Below, one piece after another: positions 3-62,631 of a DNA stretch of 64,000 nucleotides (its first letter is position 1; the number at the start of each line of letters is the position of its first letter). The notes below the pieces were generated by a model. The model had not been told where the DNA came from and did not search any database. It was given only the letters and a program-made list of their open reading frames with translations. The stretch lies in IMG/VR virus record IMGVR_UViG_3300009376_000001; one strand, given 5' to 3'. Made by a program: the position numbers and the translations under genes. Origin of the DNA: a virus.

Positions 3-2264
3 CTACCCGCATTTAGAGTACCCGCACTCCATGCATGAAGAACATCCTTCAGACATAGAGAGTGGTCCATCACACTCTGGACACCGTGACCCCCCTACAA
101 CTATTTCGCTAAAATTCTCTAATGTAGTAGCATCTCCATGCCCATTAGCATGTATAGACACTCCTACCGAGCCTGATAGCACCTGTCCTATACCATCAGC
201 AAGTGACAATACCATTTTACCGTCATTCCATACCGGACAACAAGTAATTCCTAACAATTGTTTTGTAATAACATCTACAGGTACTCCATATTGAATAGCC
301 GTAGATATCAAACGTCCCATTGCCTCAGTATCGGCTGCCTGACACTTGCCTGTTTTTCCAGTTTGTGCCAAAACTTCATAAATTTGATCTTTATCATAGT
401 TAACAGTGACATACATTTTGCCATGACCTGTATTCACTGAAGTAGTAGAACCAACTAACTTAGTCGCTCTAGCTTTTACTCGTGGAGCAGGAGATACAGT
501 TTCTGTCGTATTATTCGCCGTGGATACTAAAACTTCTCGTTCTCTAGACCCACGTCGGTATACTGTGATTCCTTTACACCCCGACTCCCACGCCTGACTA
601 TACGCCATAGCAATATCATGCTCAGTTGCTTCATTAGGAAGATTAATGGTCTTAGATATGCCTGAGTCCACATATTGCTGGAACGCTGCTTGCATCTTTA
701 TGTGATCTTCATGGCCTATTTCATCACTAACTGTGAAAACTTCACGGAGTTTAGGATCCATTAAACCATCAATACTATGTCCATCTTCAAGATATTCTTC
801 AATATCCTTATAGGACATACCTAAACTATTCTTTAAATCATCATTTATATAAAAGAGTTCTAAGTTCTCTAAGGCAGCTGACATATTATGCTTCTTATAG
901 GCCAATGCAAACAGAGGCTCAATGCCACTAGAACAGTTAGCAATCATACTAATCGTGCCTGTAGGCGCAATAGATAACCGCCACGCATTACGCATAGTAT
1001 CCCACTCGCCACCGTTTATTTGATTAAGCGGTGATTTGTCAAAAGCAGGAAAACTACCTTTATGCTGTGCTATGCCCGAAGAAGTCTTATCTGCTTCTGA
1101 TTTAAGAATAGAACCTACTTTATCGGCTAACTCTAGAGCTTCAGTACTATCATAAGGAATATTAAGACGTACCAATAAATCAGCAAAGCCCATTATGCCT
1201 AGACCAATCTTACGAGTAGATTGATTCATAGATGTAGTGTACTCAGTAGGATGCCTATTAGCATCTACAACGTTATCCAAGAAACGAGTACATGTTGCTA
1301 TAACATTCGTAAAACGCTCTTCATCAAAATAATTATGTTTAATGAAATTGCCAACGTTGATACTACCTAGATTACAAGACTCTCCTGATAGTAATGGCTG
1401 TTCTCCACACGGGTTAGTCGCATTTATCTGACCAAGCATCGGAGTAGTGTTATCCTGATTGATACGGTCAAGCCATACCATACCAGGTTCGCCATTCATC
1501 CAAGCACCTTTAATAATTTCACTATATAACTCAGCAGCCTTTACAAAACGACCATCCATTGTCGCATCAGGAGCATCATAAAATTGATTATCAAGAGGCC
1601 ATGCTAGACGAATATATTTATCTTGCCTAACCGCCTCCATGAAATTACTATCTGCCCCTATTGAGATATTAAAGTTCGTTATTTGTCCTTCAGTATTCTT
1701 ACAATGAATAAATTCTTCAATATCAGGATGATAGACTTCCATGATAGCCATATGTGCGCCATCACGTTTTCCGCCTTGCGTAATCATCGTGCCAACTTGA
1801 GAGAGCACCTTAAGCACATGAATAGGCCCACATGCTTTACCTTGGGTAGTAGCAATACCTTCCCCTTTAGGACGTAATGCTGAAAGGCTAAAACCAATGC
1901 CTCCCCCAAATTTTTCAATCATAGCCTGATCATGCGCCACACGCATGATATCTTCCATGCTATCGGGAATATCCATTACATAGCATGCTGACATAGTTCC
2001 TTGACCTGTGCCTGCATTCATGAGTGTAGGACTATTAGGCACAAAGTCCAAATTCCACATCAAGTCAAAGAAATTACTTTCTAATTCTTTAACTTGATCT
2101 TCTGTAGCCCCATACTTATATTCTACTTCTGCCATAGTACGGGCTACTCTAGTAAACATACCTTCGGCATTTTCAATAGGTACGCCTTGTTCATCCTTCA
2201 GATAATATCGCTTCTCCAAAATCTTAAGTGCATTATCCGTTAGATTTGATACAGCTGCTTTCAC
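3..2264 (-). CDS. nrdJ: Class II (adenosylcobalamin-dependent) ribonucleotide reductase with C-terminal TSCPD domain and Zn ribbon
   Basis: PNSPTLMNAG, SAC, TNPCGEQPL, CNLGSIN, RKIGLG, IAPTGTIS, ISKTINLP and KGITVYR motifs; C-terminal CPEC...CxxCGYSKC; no small-subunit gene next to it in the window. Confidence 0.95.
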   Translation of the reverse strand: MKAAVSNLTDNALKILEKRYYLKDEQGVPIENAEGMFTRVARTMAEVEYKYGATEDQVKELESNFFDLMWNLDFVPNSPTLMNAGTGQGTMSACYVMDIPDSMEDIMRVAHDQAMIEKFGGGIGFSLSALRPKGEGIATTQGKACGPIHVLKVLSQVGTMITQGGKRDGAHMAIMEVYHPDIEEFIHCKNTEGQITNFNISIGADSNFMEAVRQDKYIRLAWPLDNQFYDAPDATMDGRFVKAAELYSEIIKGAWMNGEPGMVWLDRINQDNTTPMLGQINATNPCGEQPLLSGESCNLGSINVGNFIKHNYFDEERFTNVIATCTRFLDNVVDANRHPTEYTTSMNQSTRKIGLGIMGFADLLVRLNIPYDSTEALELADKVGSILKSEADKTSSGIAQHKGSFPAFDKSPLNQINGGEWDTMRNAWRLSIAPTGTISMIANCSSGIEPLFALAYKKHNMSAALENLELFYINDDLKNSLGMSYKDIEEYLEDGHSIDGLMDPKLREVFTVSDEIGHEDHIKMQAAFQQYVDSGISKTINLPNEATEHDIAMAYSQAWESGCKGITVYRRGSREREVLVSTANNTTETVSPAPRVKARATKLVGSTTSVNTGHGKMYVTVNYDKDQIYEVLAQTGKTGKCQAADTEAMGRLISTAIQYGVPVDVITKQLLGITCCPVWNDGKMVLSLADGIGQVLSGSVGVSIHANGHGDATTLENFSEIVVGGSRCPECDGPLSMSEGCSSCMECGYSKCG

Positions 2265-5730: not shown

Positions 5731-7486
5731 GTACCAAATCTCCCCACGATACCGTTGACCTTTGTAAATCTACCTTTAATGGAATTTCTGAAGGCATTTG
5801 AAAGTCTTGCATAATAGCCCTTATCTCTTCACCTTGTGCCTCAGTAACATCGTCAAAAAGTATCTGATCATGTACCGTGTTTCGAATTTTGCCTCCTATA
5901 GATTCCACATATTTGGCAGTTTTAAGTAACGCCAACTTTAATATATCTCCAGCAGTACCTTGAATCACATAATTAAACGCCGTAAACGAGCGTTCAGGGC
6001 TTACTGGCAATTTGCGTCCAAACATAGTCTTAACATATCCATCTCGTTCTCCCTGACGTTGCAGATATTTAGATTGAGCACGAAGTTGAGGGAAACTAGA
6101 GTGAAAATAATTAAGAACTGCATCAGCTTGCGTCTTATTCATCTCTAATTTTTCTTGAATACCATCACTACCAGAACCATAAATCACACTAAAATTTAAA
6201 TGTTTACCAATCTGACGTTCTTTGGGAGTCACTTCTTCTATATTTTTGTTTAAAACCATTGAAGAAGTATAACCATGCATATCAGCATTCTCTTTAAACG
6301 CTTGAATCATATTACGTTGTCCAGAAATATCTGCTGCTATTCGTAATTCCACTTGAGAGTAGTCAAAATCAAAAAATTCATTATCAGGAATAAAAATTCG
6401 TCTAATCTTATCTTCCTTCGGAATATTCTGTAGATTTGGGCCACTACTACTAAATCTACCAGTACGAGCACCTGTGGCATTCCAATGTGGATGCACTCTA
6501 CCTTGTAAATCTTTATACGGCTCAAGATAGGTACTAGCTAATTTATTAAGACTACGCCATCGTAGAACTAATTCAGCCACTTTGGTTCCAATAGGATGCT
6601 GAATCTTCTCTAACGACTTTTCATCAACAGAACGTTGTCCTGTTTCTGTCTCTTTAGGGGGATTTATACGTAGACGGTCATAAAAATATTCTTGTAATTG
6701 CTTAGTAGACGCTACTTCAATAGGTTTACCTACTGTTTCGTAAATAGAATCTTGGATAATTCGTTGCTCTACACGAAATTCTTTTAAGAGTTGATTAATA
6801 TATTCAGTATTAATCCTTAATCCACCTTGTTCCATTTTTAAGATTATAGGAATTAACTTATGTTCAACTTTGCAAAGAAAAGCATTCTCTTCCATTACTC
6901 GATCAATATACAAATGAGCTAATGCTTTAGTGAGAACCGTATCTAACACGGCATACGGATCCATAAATTCCGCAGGAACTTGATGATACCCCTTTAGACG
7001 GTATTGTCTAATATATTCTTTAATAGTGTCTTCTGCAGCCCCTGCAGCCTGTCCGAATGCCTCTTCACCTAATTCTTTAAGGCCATGCGGAGGACGAGGA
7101 TCAATCAAATGGGATAAACGCTGAGTATCAAGTATATCCGTAGGCACAATAGTCCCATATGTTTCTCGCATCATATGTAAATCAAATTCAGAATTATGAA
7201 ATACATATGTTTTATGCGTTGCGGAGAATAAAGTATTAATTAATTTGCCAATATTCTCAGCACCATAATCAGTGTTACGGATAAAAATACCCTTATCATC
7301 CCACGATAAAGACACACCAAACGCTCGATCAGTAGTCCAATCCAATCCTGTAGTTTCGGTATCTACCGCAACGAATTTATCGTTACTACTTAGGATTGAA
7401 TCTCTAAGATCATCCAGGTTCGTTGTATTGAATAGGTTGTAAGACGGTAAATTCTTCTGTGCCTGTACCAATTCGCCATGCTCCAT
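5723..7486 (-). CDS. polA: Family A DNA polymerase (3'-5' exonuclease plus polymerase, no 5' nuclease)
   Basis: ExoI DTETTG, ExoII HN..FD, ExoIII YA..D; TGRFSSSGPNLQNIP; motif A DYSQVELR; motif B R..GK.LNF..IYG; motif C VHDQ. Confidence 0.93.
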   Translation of the reverse strand: MEHGELVQAQKNLPSYNLFNTTNLDDLRDSILSSNDKFVAVDTETTGLDWTTDRAFGVSLSWDDKGIFIRNTDYGAENIGKLINTLFSATHKTYVFHNSEFDLHMMRETYGTIVPTDILDTQRLSHLIDPRPPHGLKELGEEAFGQAAGAAEDTIKEYIRQYRLKGYHQVPAEFMDPYAVLDTVLTKALAHLYIDRVMEENAFLCKVEHKLIPIILKMEQGGLRINTEYINQLLKEFRVEQRIIQDSIYETVGKPIEVASTKQLQEYFYDRLRINPPKETETGQRSVDEKSLEKIQHPIGTKVAELVLRWRSLNKLASTYLEPYKDLQGRVHPHWNATGARTGRFSSSGPNLQNIPKEDKIRRIFIPDNEFFDFDYSQVELRIAADISGQRNMIQAFKENADMHGYTSSMVLNKNIEEVTPKERQIGKHLNFSVIYGSGSDGIQEKLEMNKTQADAVLNYFHSSFPQLRAQSKYLQRQGERDGYVKTMFGRKLPVSPERSFTAFNYVIQGTAGDILKLALLKTAKYVESIGGKIRNTVHDQILFDDVTEAQGEEIRAIMQDFQMPSEIPLKVDLQRSTVSWGDLVHD

Positions 7487-12304: not shown

Positions 12305-15300
12305 CTACGGATGATTAATATGATTTTGACTGAAGTGGGTGTTCAATCCTGTAGTGTTCTTACCTGAATTAAAGACTACCATATACATCACACCACCTCC
12401 AATATTTTCCCAATTTCCGCCAGAAGTAGGGTCAATGTACTGACCAGTAGCGGTAACATGTGTATGTTTTAACGGTAACATAAGACCCGCAGTTCCGGCA
12501 CTGCTAACATTTACTGGAATAGTAAATGTCGTACTACTTGTCACAGTAATCTTATGCAATCCATCAATACTAGGACTGGAATTACTACCACCAATCCATA
12601 CAGCTTCATTACTACTGCGGTCATGGTCAAACGTAGTAGTAATTACCGTAGGATTCGCTGCGGAATTACTACTGATAGTGTAGTAACTATTGTAACCATC
12701 AGATGCACTATTCCAAGTTTGTTTTGCATTACGTGTTATTCGGACTTGCATCTGGACATTCGTATATTTACCACCACTTGTAGTCCATCGATATGGGTTG
12801 ATTATAGCTCCAGTATAGCTATTAGGAGTACTTTGACCAGCTACTTCCTCATGTCCACACCACGAAGTAAATACTAATGGTGCCGAATCCAACTCAGGCA
12901 AAACTATATTGAATCTGCCACTACTGTCCATCTGAGTAACATCTACAAACCCAGTAAACCCAGTCATAACCTCTGCATTTATCTTAGGAGTGTCAGTATT
13001 CCACTCATCATAAGTAGTCCCGCTATTAAAGATGTCTCTGTGAGCTATATATAATCCTGAACCTTCTGTAACTGTCCCTGAATTACGTAAATATAAAGTC
13101 GCTTCATCTGTACCAGGGTGAAAATCAGGAGTACCGCTACCTCGCTTATCTCTAGCGATAAATGTTAATCCTGCGCCTCCTTGAGCCACCCCGTCTTCTT
13201 CTGGATTGATACCTAAATGATCTATACGCATCAAATCCGTATCAAGTGTCTCTCTAGTATTATGATTAACGTATAATTTCCTAGTCCAGCGAAATTCATT
13301 CTGATAATTAGCTACGGAACTGCCTCCCTGAGGCATAATGCCTAATTCAGTGCCTAAAGGTGCATACTCTTCTCTACCTACAAACCTACCTGGCCCCTGT
13401 GGCATATAATCTAAGCCGTCTACTACCGCCTTATCGAGAGGTTGGAAGACGGCATTAGCAGTTTCCCGTGTCCGACTGACTAAGTCTCGCATAAGACGAC
13501 GTTCTGCCGACCCAGGTTCAGAGACAGAGGTCATATCTCTGAATAGAATAAGCTCACATCGCCACATTGAAGCTTCCGAATAAGAGCAAGATATGGAGTA
13601 AACTAGCCAAGCCTCATTATCAATAATGGGATCTAATCCAGTTATTTCGACATTAACTCGATCTCCGGCTCGCACCATCCTAGGACGCTTTAGATGTGAA
13701 TACATAGGAGGATATTGAATAGTAATCTTACATTCCCTAAAAAAGGCATTATTTTCAGGCTGTAATTGTGCCAAAAGAGAACGTGCTCTAGTTTCGCACT
13801 GTACCGAAGTAGTCAATGAAGAATCATCTACTACCCGCTCTTTAACTAATCCATAAGCATCAATACTAGTAGTATCTTCAGCTACTCCATATGCCCCACT
13901 ACGTCCACGTACACTTACTTTATTAACAAAATCTACAGGTTTTTCATTTAAAGCATATTCTGATATTGGGATAACTTGTTCTGTTTGTTGTTGATTATCC
14001 GATAAAGTAAGACCATATGTAATAGGTGTCGAATGCCTAACAGTGCCTACTTCCATGCCAGGATGCCAAAAATTCGGCCCGACCCATCCCTGTGAAATCT
14101 TGGCAGCAGATGTAGCAGGACTAGAAACATTACTACCTAGTCTAGCTCGTATATAATACGCCGTTTTGCCGAAACTTTGGTCAGTTGCATTAGCTTCTTT
14201 AATACCTGGCTGACAAGTCTTCCAATTATGAGGCTTATCAAAGGTCACTTCATAAGTACCACTAGCGGTAAAATCCCCAGTTTCATCAAATGAATTGAAA
14301 GTAGTCCAGTTATCAGTACCTTCACCAGCAAAATACTCATAAGTAATACCGGAATATCCAGCAGAGGACGAACTAAGAACGTCAGTAATGTTTAAACGTA
14401 TGGCAGAAAAGGGTTCATCCATGCCAAAGTAGATTGCATCGCCTATTTGCCCATTATCGACAGCATACACTTTTTCAGGAACAACAGTGCCAGCAGTTCC
14501 GGCAGTAGTTACATTCACTGGAACCGAAAAAGTAGAATCGGTTAAAACAGTTACCGTTCTTGTGCCGTCTATTACTGGAGTAGAGTTAGAACTAGCAATA
14601 ACTACCTTATGTCCTGTAGTTAAACCATGAGGGAGCAATTTAGCCACCGTTCCGGCAGTTCCTGCAGTAGTTACTCGTACAGAAATACTAAAAGTAGTAG
14701 TACTTAATACAGTAACCATCCAATGGTCCGAAATACTTGGAATTGAATTACTGTCCTCAATAATTACAATATCGCCAGTAGTTAAATTATGCGCTGCTGA
14801 AGTAGTAATTACCGTTTCTGTGGCAGCCGTGTTACTGCTAATAGTTAAGCTCGGACCAGTAGTAGTGACAACAGTAGGATTGGCAACAGTATTGCCTGTA
14901 ATACGTAAAGTAGTTCCAGAGGTCGATGAGCTAATCTCCTGACTATAATCCGTAAATTTAGAACCCGCACTAGCTGATGTATCATATCGATAACAATATT
15001 GCATGTCCCTTGTGGCAGTAGTTCCTTGAACAGTGGTATTAGCGTTATATACCCACGGTTCCTTGCCTCTATCAAAATATTTAAGCATACCTACCGGAGA
15101 AGTTTGTACGTCACGAAGATCTGCAACATTAGTAGGAGTACCGGAGATATAACAACGTACCCAAAAAAGAACTCTACTGCTAGGAGGAGTAGTAAATGCT
15201 GTAATAGTAGACGTATTACCCGCAGTTGTTACGTTTACAGGGATGCTAAAAGTAGTGGCAGACACCCTAGTAATAGTATGTACACCATCAATAGACGGAG

Positions 15301-17548
15301 TAGAGTTAGACCCTCTAATAAAAATTTTATCTCCTGTCTTTAAATTATGATTTTCAGTACTCCCACCTGCACCATCTGCAGAAGTGATAATAGTAGGATT
15401 AGCTTGAGTAATACTATTAGTACCCTTGCCTTGAAGGTATTTCAAAAATTTAGCAGAACGTCCAGATACCATCCCACTATAGGGATAATCATCTAGCATA
15501 TGGGATTTATCAAATTCGTCTAACTGAACGTCATGGTTAAACGTAGTAGTAGCCGAATCCATGAAAGTATCTGTATCCCAACGAACATCTGCATAATATT
15601 CTTGAAGAAGTCCAGATGCGCCAATATCTTTCTGCCATCCAGCATTGCCAGTACCGCTTAAACCTTGAGATGCAGTAATACGACTATTACATACGACATG
15701 TCCTGCCGTGCCTGCGGTAGTGACATTTACTGCAACGGAAAAAGTAGTAGCACTAATCCGTGTAACCGTATGAGTACCATTAATCGATGGAGTAGAGTTA
15801 GAACCAGAAATAGTAACAGAGTCGCCTGTATCTAAATTATGACGTTCTGTAGTAATGACCGTAGGATTCGCTAATGTATTACTAGAAATGGTCAATCCAG
15901 AAATAGTTTGCCACGGTTCGTTATCCGCTGCAGCACGGTATGCGTCATAATATTGCCATACAACATTTACATTTGAATAATTAGGAACATTTTGCTGTAC
16001 GGCATGGAACTGTACACCATTAAACGGATATTCCGATCCAAAATACCAAGTACTATTCGCATTCCCTAAAAATTTAGTAACTACACTATTAGAATTCCAT
16101 AATGCTCTATTACCTGTACCAGCATTGCCTCCATCCATATTAAGAGCAGTCCAGGTGCCTCCTGGCCCATCTCGACCCGTTGTCCATCCACTTCCAGCAG
16201 TATTATGTGTATATCTCCAGACTTCGGAGAAGAATTCCGGATCGTCGCACCTAATATCATGAAATAAATCAGGTTTAGTATATAATTCTACTGTCTGAAC
16301 TCGTGCAAATGTAGAGTTATTAACAGTACGAACATAGGTACGCACCCAATACCTATTGGTATTACGTCTATCATCGCCATGATCTACCTTAGAGATAGCA
16401 GCACTATTCACATCTTCAACTAAGGTAGTCCCAGAACTAGCCCACGGGGCTGCCCAGTTCTCTGTAGCATCATTAGCCGTATGCATATCCGGCGTAGTGC
16501 CTAAATCCCTTTTGCCCCAATTAGTTAAATTACTAATAGTCCAGTATGTAGAACCATAAGTCTTACCACTATCTAAACCAAACTCAGAATCTGCAGTAGG
16601 TGTAAAATTAGTCCAAGCAGTGCCATTCCAATACTGCCACTGCACAGTTTGAGTCTGATTAGATGCCTGAATAGTATTACCACGAGTTAAAAGTGTATAT
16701 CTTATCCCATCAAACTTAGTATTAGAGCCAAAATATAAGATATCCGTAGTTTCAGGCGTATCCGTATCTTGATATCCAGTTGGACTTACGAAGTGACTAG
16801 ACCCATCTACCACACGACGAGTTAAATCCGTCCAATAAGTACGAGGATATCGTTCAGGGTCTGAAGTATGGTTAGCATGTGAAGGGTCAGTAGGGTCAGG
16901 ATGGTAATAAAAGACCATTAAATCTTGCTGAGGGTCTTCACTAGCTAGATCATGTATCGCTTCCAGTCCTGTTTTAACGCCTCTATAGGAAAAATCATCA
17001 GGAGTATCCGAAGAAACTGTCCTATAGTTGCCTTTTTGGCTGTAATTACGAGAAATAAGTTCACTATAGGCCGACGGATCCATCTTTAACCGTCGAAGTA
17101 AAGTGCGTTCTAAATCTCCACCCGTAGTAGGCTTATAAGTATCATTTTCTAAGATCCTATTAGCTATAAAACTACGAGTAGCAGCAGTTATAGTGCCATT
17201 TGTCTCAACCGCTTCCACGGTACGGTCTGCAATATCGTCTAAAAAGTCTCTACAAGTAAGAACTAGGGTCTGCCTATGAAAATCTTCCTCAATACTGACT
17301 ACTCGCCCTAAAAATGCCACCACACCGTAGTCTTCTAATAAACGAACACGAGTCATTGGTTGATACCAACCTACACGTGACCCCTTAAGATTAGAAACTG
17401 TGACTCTTAGAACTCGACTACGATTACCGATACTATCTATTAAAGAATAATCTTTAAAATTCTTTTCAGTAATCCATTGTTCTTGTTTAGTACGGTCTAA
17501 TTTAACAGACGTAGAAAATTGAAAATTAGTACTAAGAATTGTAGGCAT
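12305..17548 (-). CDS. Large tail-tip/baseplate hub-like protein with repeated beta domains
   Basis: 1747 aa after tape measure and distal-tail-like genes; hub-like F.GRV and SI..YG..E motifs; five E1-FCCH-like repeats; three YFG..F...W.Y..W...Y.VR repeats. Confidence 0.7.
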   Translation of the reverse strand: MPTILSTNFQFSTSVKLDRTKQEQWITEKNFKDYSLIDSIGNRSRVLRVTVSNLKGSRVGWYQPMTRVRLLEDYGVVAFLGRVVSIEEDFHRQTLVLTCRDFLDDIADRTVEAVETNGTITAATRSFIANRILENDTYKPTTGGDLERTLLRRLKMDPSAYSELISRNYSQKGNYRTVSSDTPDDFSYRGVKTGLEAIHDLASEDPQQDLMVFYYHPDPTDPSHANHTSDPERYPRTYWTDLTRRVVDGSSHFVSPTGYQDTDTPETTDILYFGSNTKFDGIRYTLLTRGNTIQASNQTQTVQWQYWNGTAWTNFTPTADSEFGLDSGKTYGSTYWTISNLTNWGKRDLGTTPDMHTANDATENWAAPWASSGTTLVEDVNSAAISKVDHGDDRRNTNRYWVRTYVRTVNNSTFARVQTVELYTKPDLFHDIRCDDPEFFSEVWRYTHNTAGSGWTTGRDGPGGTWTALNMDGGNAGTGNRALWNSNSVVTKFLGNANSTWYFGSEYPFNGVQFHAVQQNVPNYSNVNVVWQYYDAYRAAADNEPWQTISGLTISSNTLANPTVITTERHNLDTGDSVTISGSNSTPSINGTHTVTRISATTFSVAVNVTTAGTAGHVVCNSRITASQGLSGTGNAGWQKDIGASGLLQEYYADVRWDTDTFMDSATTTFNHDVQLDEFDKSHMLDDYPYSGMVSGRSAKFLKYLQGKGTNSITQANPTIITSADGAGGSTENHNLKTGDKIFIRGSNSTPSIDGVHTITRVSATTFSIPVNVTTAGNTSTITAFTTPPSSRVLFWVRCYISGTPTNVADLRDVQTSPVGMLKYFDRGKEPWVYNANTTVQGTTATRDMQYCYRYDTSASAGSKFTDYSQEISSSTSGTTLRITGNTVANPTVVTTTGPSLTISSNTAATETVITTSAAHNLTTGDIVIIEDSNSIPSISDHWMVTVLSTTTFSISVRVTTAGTAGTVAKLLPHGLTTGHKVVIASSNSTPVIDGTRTVTVLTDSTFSVPVNVTTAGTAGTVVPEKVYAVDNGQIGDAIYFGMDEPFSAIRLNITDVLSSSSAGYSGITYEYFAGEGTDNWTTFNSFDETGDFTASGTYEVTFDKPHNWKTCQPGIKEANATDQSFGKTAYYIRARLGSNVSSPATSAAKISQGWVGPNFWHPGMEVGTVRHSTPITYGLTLSDNQQQTEQVIPISEYALNEKPVDFVNKVSVRGRSGAYGVAEDTTSIDAYGLVKERVVDDSSLTTSVQCETRARSLLAQLQPENNAFFRECKITIQYPPMYSHLKRPRMVRAGDRVNVEITGLDPIIDNEAWLVYSISCSYSEASMWRCELILFRDMTSVSEPGSAERRLMRDLVSRTRETANAVFQPLDKAVVDGLDYMPQGPGRFVGREEYAPLGTELGIMPQGGSSVANYQNEFRWTRKLYVNHNTRETLDTDLMRIDHLGINPEEDGVAQGGAGLTFIARDKRGSGTPDFHPGTDEATLYLRNSGTVTEGSGLYIAHRDIFNSGTTYDEWNTDTPKINAEVMTGFTGFVDVTQMDSSGRFNIVLPELDSAPLVFTSWCGHEEVAGQSTPNSYTGAIINPYRWTTSGGKYTNVQMQVRITRNAKQTWNSASDGYNSYYTISSNSAANPTVITTTFDHDRSSNEAVWIGGSNSSPSIDGLHKITVTSSTTFTIPVNVSSAGTAGLMLPLKHTHVTATGQYIDPTSGGNWENIGGGVMYMVVFNSGKNTTGLNTHFSQNHINHP

Positions 17549-54269: not shown

Positions 54270-55574
54270 TTAGGCGTTCAGGTCAGTAATCTTGGCGTGT
54301 GCGTCCAAACGCAAGGATCGTAGTTCACCGATGGTGTAGAACAATCCACGAAGGACGAATGCGTTTGCCTGGAAGAAGTCTCGGTTGTCGATATACTGCG
54401 TAGGAGCAGCAATAGCGAGTTCCAAGTACCGTGTATCCATGACATAGACATTGCTACCAAGGTTAGCATCTGCAGCCGTGAACGAACCCTGAACATCAGG
54501 ATCGACAATGACTGGGATACCCCTATAAGTAGCCACCTGGAAGCCAGCGTGGGAACCTGGAAGAGTGGATTCGTCGCCGACTTTGACAACAAATTCGCCC
54601 CAGTCCAGATAACGTTGCTGAGCTTGCAACAGGGAAGATAGACGGTCAAACTGGTCATAACCCATCAGAATTACGTCAGGGTCAGCACCGTTTACACGAA
54701 CTTCACGAATGGCCTGGTCTAGCAGGGCCAACGTGAGGTTACGCCCAGTACCACTATTACCAAGAACGGTAGCAGCAGCATTGTGCGCTCCAGCAGCACG
54801 AGTAGTTTGGTTATATACGTCTACGCCGTTAGTAACAGTCACGCCAGCTACGACACGAGCATCTTGTTCGACGATGTCGTCAAGAGAAGTGAAGCCAGCA
54901 CGGCTCTTTACATAAACAATCTCACCGTCAGTCAAGTTTCCGCCACCTGTCCAAGTAGCGTCACTCTGAGCGTCAAGACCGCTATAAGTAAGAGCAGTAT
55001 CACCGATGGTGGTTCCACCGAAAGTGTCACCAACACGGAGAGTGTTACCAGCGGAGATTATTTCACCAGTACCAGAGGCACCAGCAGTCGAGGCGATGGT
55101 CATCGAGCGAAGCAGGAGTTCCTGGTTCAACTCTTTTATGTGGTCCCTAGCAGCAGCTTCTTGCTCAACTGCCAGGTTGTCCCCCATACCACCTTCCAGA
55201 CCGCTCATGATCTGGGACTTGAGTGAGACACCGAAGTCAGTAGCTACGATACGAGGAGCAGAGTCCACGTTGACGTAATTGCTGACATCGACAGTGGGAA
55301 GCGCACCAGTTTCAGTTACGGGACGGGAACGGCTATCGCCCCTATCTGACCGCAAACGCCAACCAGTGGTGGGTCCCCATTGTACTTTCCGAAGAATGTT
55401 CCAAAATCGTGTCTGGTTGTTCAATGCGTCCCAGACTTTACGTCCGTAAGTTGCAGTGAACACATCTGATACCTGAAGGTACGTTTGCTTAGCAAAGTAA
55501 CCAGGTGGCATCAGTGAGCTACGCAGATTTCGCTCCGCAGAAGATATATACTGCGCTATGCTTAGATCAGCCAT
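54270..55574 (-). CDS. Major capsid protein (HK97 fold)
   Basis: Protease-scaffold-MCP order; YG.KVW..LN, E.G.LP, PDVILM, VATYRGIP and GEL motifs; high-expression codon bias. Confidence 0.85.
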   Translation of the reverse strand: MADLSIAQYISSAERNLRSSLMPPGYFAKQTYLQVSDVFTATYGRKVWDALNNQTRFWNILRKVQWGPTTGWRLRSDRGDSRSRPVTETGALPTVDVSNYVNVDSAPRIVATDFGVSLKSQIMSGLEGGMGDNLAVEQEAAARDHIKELNQELLLRSMTIASTAGASGTGEIISAGNTLRVGDTFGGTTIGDTALTYSGLDAQSDATWTGGGNLTDGEIVYVKSRAGFTSLDDIVEQDARVVAGVTVTNGVDVYNQTTRAAGAHNAAATVLGNSGTGRNLTLALLDQAIREVRVNGADPDVILMGYDQFDRLSSLLQAQQRYLDWGEFVVKVGDESTLPGSHAGFQVATYRGIPVIVDPDVQGSFTAADANLGSNVYVMDTRYLELAIAAPTQYIDNRDFFQANAFVLRGLFYTIGELRSLRLDAHAKITDLNA

Positions 55575-59602: not shown

Positions 59603-60790
59603 TCATCCTATACTTGGTTGGATGGCACGTTGTGTGGGAGCCGATGGACTAGAACCCCCAAATAGCGGAGCATGACGTGCGCCTGTCTCTCTCATTGCGG
59701 TAGCTTCATTTACATTACCAGGAAGAGCACGTGATCCTCCGCCTGGAGTCATAGCATAGACCTGCTCGCCTCCCGTCTGCTTCTCTATTCCCTCTTGTTC
59801 AGGAGACTCCTGAACATTATGAGAGGGTCATTTATCGCAGTCTTCGTCTTCAGGACCTGTCTCCAGACCATCGGCAGACATGCCCAAACCATCTATGGCG
59901 GAGCCTCCACTACTATTAGGCATCATTTCCAAATCTTGAGAGACAGCGTTAGCTTTTTCCACCGACAAAAAATCAGATAATTCAAAAACATCTGGCTCAT
60001 AGTATAGGAAGGCGGATAAAAAGGCAGGTTCGTTCACTGTATCTATACTTTTCGCTATATTCATACTAGATTCCCACCAATCTTTAGTAGGACGTGTCGA
60101 TCGATTTGTTAGCATCTGATGAACTATTGTTCCTTCGACCAAATCTTCTGCATTAATACTTTCATCTAAATCAAATGATTTTAAAATACTAATATCATCA
60201 ACTAAAGCAGTATCGCCATCCTGTTTAGGCAATACACGATCCACGGAACCCCAAATTTTCAGAATATCAATAGATTTAGCATGAGTACGGACTACAGAAC
60301 TCACAAAATCATTTGATTTTGTAACATCATTCGTCTCATCTTCGTCATCTTCAGTAGTAGCGTATCGATTTAAAAAGGGTTCAGCAATACTGGATTCAGA
60401 ATTTTCCTGCTCATGTCTCTCTAAGTTAGTATTCTGATCATATTCCCCTTTTTCTACATCATCACCTTGAATCTTTGAAGATATTTTATCTCCAATAGCT
60501 TCTCCAATAGCAGGAGCAGCTGCTCTAGCTACTGTACCCATTAAGCCAGATTTCTCTACTTCGTTTTCAGACTGATAAGGATCATCCCCGTTAGTACTAT
60601 CCACATTTACATGCACAGACGGAGCTTTAGCAGGCTGGTGGTCTGACGTATGCCAGTGCATAACATCAGGACACCAATGGTCAGCCTCAGGCAATTCATC
60701 TTCGGTCTTCTGCAAATGCGAAGACTCAATAGAATCAATCATTAAATGTAGGCCATTTACGAAATCTAAATCAGCTTGGGACTGCGTCAT
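59603..60790 (-). CDS. Putative head internal protein; candidate selenoprotein (in-frame TGA at 59828-59830, CDK-U); 320 aa if TGA terminates, 395 aa if read through
   Basis: Frame open for 74 codons past TGA, ending 9 nt before the protease ATG; SECIS-like hairpin; the extension carries the family GIEK motif. Confidence 0.65.
59790..59827 (-). promoter_or_regulatory. Bacterial SECIS-like hairpin 1
   Basis: UGA-CCCUCU-CAUAA-UGUUCAGGA-GUC-UCCUGAACA-AGAGGG. Confidence 0.65.
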
Positions 60791-61097
60791 TTTGCCAAAC
60801 CTCCGGCGGTGCCACCAATATCACAGGTGGATGATATGCATTACAAAGATGATAAATAGTAGAAGACGATGCTTCTCTCATAGCCATTATCTTGAATACT
60901 TCAAATAATTCAATATCCACAAATTGTACTGCTGGGCCATCAACACCTACATCAATCGCTGCCCAACGATTTGGATAATTCTCAATTAAATCAGACCTAT
61001 TGCTCAATAACCATTGCACATTTGCTGACCGATTAATTTCAACTTCTGCTTTCATTTTAGCCTTACCTATCTCCTTCCTTACCTTTGACAAAACCAT
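60771..61097 (-). CDS. Hypothetical protein, DUF5678-like
   Basis: N..WL..N...L...YP..W.AI pattern. Confidence 0.45.
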   Translation of the reverse strand: MVLSKVRKEIGKAKMKAEVEINRSANVQWLLSNRSDLIENYPNRWAAIDVGVDGPAVQFVDIELFEVFKIMAMREASSSTIYHLCNAYHPPVILVAPPEVWQNDAVPS

Positions 61098-61111
61098 ACC
61101 TTACCTTACCA

Positions 61112-61537
61112 TTACCCAAGATATTCTTGATTATAAGAATTTAAAGACTGTAGTCCAGGATCTGGACACGTATTATTTATCGGTGTCGAATTCTTAGGAA
61201 TATAATATTTATTAGTCGCATCTAAAAATCGTTCATATAAATAATACCAAAGATTCTCAGAAAATTCCTCTACTGTACAACCACGTGTTTGAGCATCTCG
61301 TCCGGCTTCTGCCTTCCAACGTTCTAAAACTCGTAATTTCCAATCATTAAAATCTAAATTATATGAGTTCTTTGGTTCAATAACTTTACCTGGCGTAGGC
61401 ATACGAGTTTCTCCATAGCCTCCTACGTCAGCATAATAAAAATCATCAAACGCATCCCATAATGCGTCTTGAAATTCATTGTAATTATGGAATTGTCTAG
61501 AAACAACTAATCCAGGCTGATGCTTAGTCTGTTTCAT
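61112..61537 (-). CDS. Hypothetical protein
   Basis: 141-aa aromatic-rich ORF. Confidence 0.6.
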   Translation of the reverse strand: MKQTKHQPGLVVSRQFHNYNEFQDALWDAFDDFYYADVGGYGETRMPTPGKVIEPKNSYNLDFNDWKLRVLERWKAEAGRDAQTRGCTVEEFSENLWYYLYERFLDATNKYYIPKNSTPINNTCPDPGLQSLNSYNQEYLG

Positions 61538-61675
61538 TTACGGCTCTATAGGAGCTATTTTCTCTATTTGGTTTGGACACCAACGAGCAGGCTCAAAATT
61601 AGGTTCCGGATCCGGCTGAATCCGTGGATTCGTCTTTGGTACTACTGTCGGTTTCGTCTTCGGTGATGTTGGCAT
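61538..61675 (-). CDS. 45-aa proline-rich protein (not in the ORF track)
   Basis: MPTSPKTKPTVVPKTNPRIQPDPEPNFEPARWCPNQIEKIAPIEP; AAGGAG RBS; stop abuts the next ATG. Confidence 0.65.
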   Translation of the reverse strand: MPTSPKTKPTVVPKTNPRIQPDPEPNFEPARWCPNQIEKIAPIEP

Positions 61676-62051
61676 CTATCTCTATCTCCTTAGCAAGGAA
61701 TTTATATAGTTTTAATTTTAAATCGTATCCCGCATCTGATCCTGTTCCCCAACGAAAAGTCGTAGGAACAATAGCTAACAGTGTTCTTGCTAAAAATTCA
61801 TCAATGGGCAAAGACTCAGTAAGTGAAGAAATCTGAGTAGGTTGCCCTTTCTTTTGTCTAGTTAAAGAACTAATTCCTCTCCAAACATCATATCTAAAAG
61901 ATGACCAATTGGTGACTAAATCTTCTAGAGGAGCATTCGGTATTAGTCCTGAGCCAGAACACATAACCCAATCCAAAAGAAGAAGCTCTTCTTCTGTAAC
62001 CGTAATGTTTTCTACAACTGGAAGTTCCCAGCCGTCATCCCCTAGTACCAT
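61599..62051 (-). CDS. Hypothetical protein
   Basis: 150 aa with GAGG RBS; acidic tail overlaps the proline-rich ORF. Confidence 0.6.
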   Translation of the reverse strand: MVLGDDGWELPVVENITVTEEELLLLDWVMCSGSGLIPNAPLEDLVTNWSSFRYDVWRGISSLTRQKKGQPTQISSLTESLPIDEFLARTLLAIVPTTFRWGTGSDAGYDLKLKLYKFLAKEIEIDANITEDETDSSTKDESTDSAGSGT

Positions 62052-62055
62052 ATAC

Positions 62056-62088
62056 TACCTCGCATGCCTACGGCAGCTAAATACCGCC
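62056..62088 (-). promoter_or_regulatory. Bacterial SECIS-like hairpin 2
   Basis: UGA-GGCGG-UAUUU-A-GCUGCC-GUA-GGCA(U)GC-G-AGGUA. Confidence 0.5.
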
Positions 62089-62631
62089 TCAAGCAGCTTC
62101 TAAATGACTTGGATCGCCTTTTTTATGCTTACATTTAGCACGAGATTGTTTATCCAAATATCTATTAATTAACGTAACAGGGTCAGCAGATCGATTAAAA
62201 CCGCCTTCCTGTGGGCCATAGGTCGCAAATGAAGCAGCAGATGGACCCGTACTGCCTCCCCCTGATCCCGGCTGTGAGGTAGCATGGATACCCATTGAGC
62301 CGCCACCAGGAGCACTACCCCAATTAGTAGTAGGAGCCTGATATACAGTACCAGAACGTCCAATAGTGCCTGAAGCTCCTACTGCCCCACACATATTCTG
62401 AGTACACGCTTTGCCTATTTCAGAGCCTTTTTCATGCCCACAAGGAAAAGTATGTTCATGTTTTTCTACATAACCATCGATAGCTTTCTTAATTAATGAA
62501 ACTATCATAGATTTAGACGCAAAATCACTAAGCTTGTCTTCACTCATGCTAGTTTTAGTCTTCTTACCAGCACGAGCACGAGCAAGCTCAGCACCCATAA
62601 ATCGACGTTGTTTCTCTGATTTAGCTGGCAT
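62077..62631 (-). CDS. DUF3008-like head-cluster protein; candidate selenoprotein (TGA at 62089-62091, ends ...AA-U-GGI)
   Basis: N-terminal MPAKSEKQRRFMGA...MSE..L.DFA; TGA aligns with Cys of an internal CxHxKG repeat; 180 aa if TGA terminates. Confidence 0.6.

Follow-up and report, generated by a model that had tools for sequence, protein, structure and literature searches.

Do the two UGA codons that appear to end two late genes of a marine virus really terminate translation, or are they read as amino acids, and if so is the residue selenocysteine (Sec)? The question is raised by IMG/VR virus record IMGVR_UViG_3300009376_000001, of which we analysed one stretch of 64,000 nucleotides (hereafter the window). 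Two genes of its head block, called here gene A and gene B, lie directly upstream of the gene for a prohead protease fusion, and each is closed by an in-frame UGA (site A and site B) followed by a hairpin resembling the Sec insertion sequence (SECIS) of bacteria; the coordinates of all features are collected in Table 1. We consider it very probable that both UGAs are recoded and, on the sequences at hand, we moderately favor SelB- and SECIS-dependent insertion of Sec as the way in which this would happen.

The two codons stand out by their surroundings. The sequence-only reading of this DNA had claimed that late genes avoid TGA and that only two TGA stops are followed by a sizeable gap, and a greedy map of the open reading frames (ORFs) of the window bears it out: its 73 ORFs end in TAA (40), TAG (22) and TGA (11), and 8 of the 11 TGA stops overlap the next start by 4 to 38 nt. 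The ninth (59603-05) is the end of the frame that continues beyond site A, and real gaps are left only by the TGAs of gene B (62089-91, the next ATG being 37 nt away) and gene A (59828-30, 234 nt to the next gene), the latter gap being filled by 74 open codons in the frame of gene A. These are also the only two TGAs in the window that need reading through, the others ending genes at overlapping junctions. Reassignment of the code in the whole genome (code 4 or 25, as in recoded phages) was rejected because long ORFs, up to 1747 aa, are intact under table 11.

The evidence for translation past site A comes from relatives, whose DNA was taken from IMG/VR, JGI metagenomes and other assemblies. 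More than 100 homologs of gene A occur in marine metagenomes, mostly deep-ocean and Tara samples; as called, nearly all of them end at site A, after D-C-[DE] or D-C-[DE]-x, and they reach at most the first 81% of the read-through protein. At the DNA level, site A is TGA in 29 out of 29 distinct loci, down to locus L049 with 37% identity and locus L047 with 34%. Where the downstream DNA is fully readable, the same frame stays open for 62 to 81 codons, up to the protease gene, in 26 loci out of 27, and over 23 loci the extension contains no stop in 1640 in-frame codons, compared with 85 and 165 in the other frames. Its insertions and deletions are all multiples of three, its third codon positions are the most variable, and conservation of the peptide begins with the first codons after the UGA, with an invariant Lys in an [LVI][ED]K motif 13 to 16 residues on and an invariant P..NE..R further along. 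In nearly all loci the conserved [LVI][ED]K comes before the first in-frame ATG, GTG or TTG, which can be as late as codon 48 of 76, and start codons so placed beyond conserved residues argue that there is no separate downstream gene and that ribosomes pass the UGA. A separate gene was rejected on these late starts together with the kept frame and the absence of stops. The stops that finally end the extensions are a mixture of TAA, TAG and TGA.

That both TGAs might still be ordinary stops, the stretch after site A being a small gene of its own and the hairpins regulatory or terminator-like, agrees with the practice of gene callers, since they treat the TGAs in this way, all database proteins end there and some of the downstream pieces have been called as proteins of 50 to 75 aa. 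Such an account, which was already disfavored, would have to accommodate a downstream frame that, indels notwithstanding, is identical to the upstream one in each of the 26 long-extension loci, conservation that starts at the very first codon after the TGA, start codons that are missing where a separate gene needs them, a TGA that is invariant while other stops drift, and hairpins A and B that are followed by no U-run. We regard it as highly improbable.

Hairpins had been claimed after both TGAs, and both are present (Table 1). In the window, the first loop base of hairpin A is found 20 nt after the UGA. In an alignment of 25 sequences, this hairpin takes the form of an 8-bp helix with a 3-nt loop, in which 95.5% of the cells are paired and 5 of the 8 pairs have changed on both sides; sliding the partner strand by 1 to 3 columns reduced pairing to 34-52%. 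The stems are unlike between lineages (GCUCAGAA, GCUGCGAA, UCUUCGAA, UCUCUGGA, and UCGGA in L049, where the hairpin UCGGA-GGU-UCCGA again has its loop 20 nt after the UGA), and because the divergent stems force changes of amino acids in the peptide (AQKSSE, AAKDSQ, SSKSSK, SLEDSE), RNA pairing is selected on top of coding. Among 27 site-A loci the loop is GUC in 21, GGA in 5 and AGUUG in one, at a distance of 16, 17, 20 or 23 nt from the UGA. Hairpin B has 4 to 10 bp across relatives, with a GUA or GUU loop 16 to 18 nt after the UGA, just past the second stop; in 11 sequences pairing holds in 88% of the cells and both sides have changed at 3 of the 7 pairs, the slid controls giving 17-48%.

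Taking the two sites together, the loop lies 16 to 23 nt after the UGA in 27 site-A and 16 site-B loci, and its first base is G in 26 of the 27 and 12 of the 16, respectively. When the 50 nt downstream of 71 stops in the window were folded, site A was the most stable (-20.9 kcal/mol, for a mean of -6.1) and site B the fourth (-12.5 kcal/mol). A loosely defined hairpin can be found at 13% of arbitrary positions in the window, so a single sequence gives little support by itself, and it is the comparison with relatives that bears the weight. Bacterial SECIS elements have been described as stem-loops immediately downstream of the UGA with an apical loop that holds conserved guanosines (PMC1976440), and the geometry of the predicted hairpins A and B fits this description. 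By comparison of sequences, the conservation of the UGA, translation past it and the presence of covarying hairpins at a fixed distance are established.

Site B presents another situation, as in most lineages almost nothing is gained in length by reading the UGA. It is TGA in 16 out of 16 distinct loci, following the motif ...KC[GK]HK[KR]GDP.H[LI]E.., and the next codons are GGN and then GGN, AGC or AAC, with mainly wobble changes; after these two codons comes a sense codon, then TAA or TAG. Depending on the lineage, the tail after the UGA measures 1 (L005, L011), 3, 17, 25 or 29 codons, the long tails of 17, 25 and 29 codons being open in L028, L029 and L006, respectively, and starting with Gly-Gly. 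The conserved pattern is C-x-H-x7-H-x4-U-G-G, and the tail of about 27 residues behaves as a portable module. In the window it forms the end of the MPAKSEKQRRFMG protein, L002, L017, L020, L036 and L046 have it as a gene by itself with 36 to 42 codons (in L046, at 6408-6527, its ATG overlaps the preceding gene's TAA as TAATG), and in L028 and L029 it is fused to the adjacent MPDFKGRKDF protein. Judging by this distribution, the Sec-tail module of gene B is a shuffled module.

The main competitor of Sec insertion is a programmed read-through of UGA that does not involve selenium, in which a near-cognate tRNA (Trp, Cys or Arg), perhaps aided by the hairpin, would give a fixed ratio of short and extended products. 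A conserved UGA followed by a conserved in-frame extension is what such a mechanism would leave at site A, where no Cys homolog was found among 1.84 billion representative proteins; the tRNA and Rfam searches (window, 18 loci and one related record) revealed no tRNA-Sec, and producing two isoforms of a head protein is a familiar strategy of phages. To our knowledge, no hairpin that stimulates UGA read-through in bacteria exists besides SECIS. Moreover, this mechanism leaves unexplained that site B adds only 1 to 3 residues in most lineages, which makes an "extended isoform" implausible there, and that loci L040 (3489-3551) and L041 (5034-5080), which have lost the extension of gene A, kept the UGA, the hairpin and a tail of 10 codons, with the protease ATG 9 nt on. 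Finally, conserved Cys and His residues lie next to the UGA (C-x-U or C-x-x-U at site A, C-x-H-x7-H-x4-U at site B), and these neighbors, like the alignments of U with Cys, point to the identity of the residue. On these three grounds the residue itself, and not the extension alone, seems to matter, and we judge read-through without selenium to be unlikely.

Direct counterparts with Cys in place of the UGA were found at site B. BLASTP aligns U181 of gene B with the Cys of protein P0193 (HLEAQAD-C-GG) from the lineage of L011 and L044, and gene B contains an internal repeat whose first copy (..YL.KH...PCGH......KAC) carries Cys at the place of U in the second (KAC versus AAU) in 17 of 20 homologs. 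A search with the Cys-bearing L011 protein returned only the protein itself. At site A, a profile of the junction matched 17 proteins among 1.84 billion representatives, none of which crosses the junction. The conservation, the open and conserved frame, the covarying hairpins and the pairing of Sec with Cys at site B give good support to the claim that both UGAs are decoded, probably as Sec.

Several observations weigh against Sec. A new selenoprotein family is, by the standard criterion, expected to have Cys homologs (PMC1976440), and for site A no homolog with Cys or any other sense codon was present among the 1.84 billion representative proteins. The family is narrow, with about 100 clusters that all exceed roughly 34% identity, and this weakens the objection. 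For site B, Cys stands opposite U in one lineage and one internal repeat. At site A a variable one or two residues separate Cys from U, AlphaFold2 predicts disorder in the Sec regions, which is unusual for catalytic selenoproteins, and the five GGA loops at site A do not contain GU. As for the machinery, ARAGORN detected no tRNA, tRNA-Sec included, in either the window or 18 loci of relatives; Rfam gave no match in the window at gathering thresholds; tRNA-Sec (RF01852) was absent from one related record of 30.5 kb, selA, selB and selD not being searched for; and a scan of genome collections with a gene A profile found no relative and hence no clue to the host.

The lack of tRNAs bears also on a further alternative, namely that a dedicated suppressor tRNA or otherwise unusual tRNA, supplied by the phage (whose genome has at least 141 kb) or by its host, decodes the two UGAs, while the hairpins serve pausing, mRNA stability or mRNA processing. 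Large phages often carry tRNAs, and the window, 64 kb long, is part of a contig of about 141 kb. Nevertheless, with no tRNA in the window or the 18 related loci, with 8 other TGAs of the window behaving as stops at overlapping junctions, and with a covarying hairpin at the same distance after each decoded UGA left unexplained, we find this alternative improbable, clearly more so than read-through by a near-cognate tRNA.

Which type of SECIS is to be expected depends on the host. Haloarchaeal tailed viruses are the only cultured relatives of the capsid protein, which they match at 31% identity across 38% of its length. An archaeal host was nevertheless rejected because the replication genes of the window are of bacterial type (RecA at 8e-56, family A polymerase, DnaG-type primase, DnaB and RuvC), and from these genes a bacterial host appears much more likely. 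Archaeal SECIS elements lie in untranslated regions. With replication genes of bacterial type, the bacterial SECIS located inside the reading frame is the appropriate model.

We thus infer that the inserted residue is Sec and that SelB is the factor, and the following scenario can be proposed. With the UGA in the ribosomal A site, the hairpin located 16 to 23 nt downstream would act as a SECIS of bacterial type and recruit host SelB carrying GTP and Sec-tRNA(Sec), in competition with release factor 2. Gene A would then give a product of 395 residues whose acidic disordered linker carries a C-x-x-U pair; should the release factor win or selenium be scarce, a truncated product of 320 residues would be made. 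The product of gene B would end in a small C-x-H...H-x4-U-G-G-x module that looks like a knuckle for metal binding or redox chemistry, with Sec standing where the paralogous first repeat has Cys. An earlier suggestion that product length depends on selenium would accordingly hold at site A (320 or 395 aa), but hardly at site B, where read-through adds 3 aa.

The closest known systems are the selenoprotein genes of the E. coli fdhF type. In fdhF, the GU bases of the loop are situated about 20 nt after the UGA. Like these genes, sites A and B combine an in-frame UGA, a downstream stem-loop with a G(U) apical loop some 16 to 23 nt after it, and a predicted competition with termination. They differ in being encoded by a phage within a block of head genes, in belonging to no known protein family, in the lack of Cys homologs at site A and in the position of hairpin B beyond the second stop, 1 to 3 codons after the UGA in most lineages. 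The fdhF SECIS also has a bulged U, of which no equivalent is evident at either site. The C-x-x-U or C-x-U of site A recalls the C-x-x-U of the Rdx family (SelW/SelT), and site B, with a Sec near the C-terminus followed by Gly, recalls the ...G-C-U-G of thioredoxin reductase. These are likenesses rather than an assigned membership. A thioredoxin or reductase fold is absent here, disorder is predicted for the Sec regions, the fold search gave nothing similar and the Cys-U spacing varies.

Among viruses, a review on recoding from 2021 mentions as selenoproteins only the glutathione peroxidases of two poxviruses, molluscum contagiosum virus and fowlpox virus (PMC8310308). Those too are encoded by viruses, but they are captured host enzymes of animal viruses with eukaryotic SECIS elements, whereas we deal with phage genes of no recognized family and with elements of bacterial type. 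In the literature that we searched, no phage-encoded selenoprotein is reported, selenoproteins being known from cells and the two poxviruses. The A1 protein of phage Q-beta offers another parallel to site A, since the UGA ending a virion protein gene is read through into a C-terminal extension. Q-beta read-through needs no downstream hairpin, and the residue inserted is unimportant; the genes described here differ by their covarying hairpins, the adjacent Cys and extensions that go down to a single residue.

What the two proteins do can be approached from their sequences and their location. Gene A encodes a near-invariant N-terminal cluster, HWCPD..WHT.DH (window 60640-60680, residues 38-51), which is the second Cys/His motif of the protein, and an acidic disordered tail that ends with ...EDEDCDK before the UGA. 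A Cys at C-x-UGA or C-x-x-UGA is present in all site-A loci except the most distant one, L047 (4727-4760), which ends with ...GKG-TGA-GGH HDS-TAG and has a His-rich context instead of the Cys, with a different geometry of the downstream fold. The AlphaFold2 model of gene A has a mean predicted local distance difference test score (pLDDT) of 61, only the helical domain at residues ~155-280 is confident, and the Sec region is disordered; Foldseek gave no match to this model at E <= 0.001 in the PDB and viral structure sets. Neither gene A or gene B nor their small neighbors match a Pfam or PHROGs family, and among GenBank phages nothing similar to the region was found at the DNA or protein level. 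The metal-binding or redox roles suggested for the two genes are inferred from their motifs, and their products would end up in the capsid.

The sequence-only reading went further and proposed that both Sec sites fall in short segments bounded by protease sites, to be released inside the head as cargo. The peptides that it quoted are exact, with 58 aa after SVEK to GIEK and 23 aa for QSRAKCKH...AAUGGI. The [LIVF][ED]K motif that would mark the cleavage sites is in excess, with 4 copies in gene A for 0.6 expected and 2 in gene B for 0.2 expected, that is 6 for 0.8 in both genes. The motif, the vicinity of the protease, scaffold-like and capsid genes and the acidic, low-complexity nature of the proteins are reminiscent of the internal proteins of T4 and the inner-body proteins of phiKZ-type phages. 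Genes A and B, by comparison, show no homology to them, and their motif ends in Lys. Prohead protease sites of T4 and phiKZ end in Glu. Two other observations go against the cargo proposal: the putative YLDK site is not invariant, being YLDL in L017, and the PSH supposed to be common to the two Sec segments is a coincidence, since P-[SND]-H is kept at site B while the residues after the site-A UGA vary (PSH, KRK, PKSH, DKGK, KKK). The position in the head block, the excess of [LIVF][ED]K, the invariant Lys of its copy after the site-A UGA and the mini-genes for the module fit the making of small Cys/His/Sec peptides in the head. That marine phages build selenium into their particles, through a Cys-x-x-Sec head protein and a portable module of about 40 residues, both packaged and trimmed by the protease, is on these sequences a tentative and rather doubtful proposal.

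All genes of the window lie on the minus strand in one large block, with the replication genes at low coordinates (ribonucleotide reductase, RuvC, RecA, family A DNA polymerase, DnaG-type primase and DnaB-like helicase), the tail and fiber genes in the middle and the head block at high coordinates. In relatives, the order is kept as a 221-aa protein, gene B, proteins of 150, 141 and 108 aa, gene A, the protease fusion, the scaffold-like protein and the major capsid protein. The ribonucleotide reductase at the edge of the window (3-2264, minus strand) is a large subunit with a C-terminal TSCPD domain. The 1747-aa protein (12305-17548, minus strand) has as its sole Pfam match the FCCH domain of ubiquitin-activating enzyme E1 (2.4e-13, residues 563-609), which is unusual in a structural block of a phage. 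Between genes A and B, an ORF of 45 codons (61538-61675, minus strand; ...PNFEPARWCPNQIEKIAPIEP) overlaps the 3' end of the gene for the 150-aa protein (61599-62051) in a different frame; it is kept in L001, L005 and L011, carries another WCP and IEK motif, and may be a small overlapping gene or else a frame entered by programmed frameshifting.

Table 1. Features of genes A and B and of the neighboring head genes, in window coordinates.
Feature	Position	Strand	Description
Gene B up to the UGA, 180 codons	62092..62631	-	MPAKSEKQRRFMGAEL N-terminal domain, Cys/His repeat (PCGH...KAC), Gly-rich linker, C-terminal module
Sec-tail module of gene B	62077..62172	-	LINRYLDKQSRAKCKHKKGDPSHLEAA, UGA (62089-91), GGC GGT ATT (62080-88), TAG (62077-79)
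SECIS-like hairpin B	62065..62075	-	Core UGCC-GUA-GGCA; loop 17 nt after UGA; in 3' untranslated spacer
Gene A up to the UGA, 320 codons	59831..60790	-	From ORF map, homologs, AlphaFold2
Site A, in-frame UGA	59828..59830	-	C-D-K-UGA context; candidate Sec codon U321
Read-through extension of gene A, 74 codons	59603..59827	-	TGA stop at 59603-05; ends 9 nt before protease ATG
SECIS-like hairpin A	59790..59827	-	Core 59796-59816: 9 bp, GUC loop, lower stem CCCUC/GAGGG
Prohead protease fusion, 970 aa	56681-59593	-	C-terminal 175 residues match maturation protease families (phrog_23555 5e-5; phrog_32381 2e-6)
Acidic scaffold-like protein, 338 aa	55574-56590	-	Putative role, from position and composition only
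Major capsid protein	54270-55574	-	PF17236 SU10_MCP 3.6e-11; phrog_24667 2.4e-11

Even if the UGAs turned out to be read through without selenium, double-stranded DNA phages would have in these genes a rare and well-conserved example of UGA recoding that goes with a hairpin. If the UGAs encode Sec, they would add two new families missed by standard selenoprotein searches, one having no Cys homologs and both being truncated by gene callers, and the tail of gene B, a natural Sec module that is very small and portable and has its short SECIS behind the stop, could interest selenoprotein engineers. Phages would then be using host SelB for their own late proteins, which would link phage production in the ocean to selenium. 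Were selenium also built into the particles, the phage would depend on the Sec machinery of the host and on the supply of selenium in the deep ocean for its infectivity, or for what it brings into the cell.

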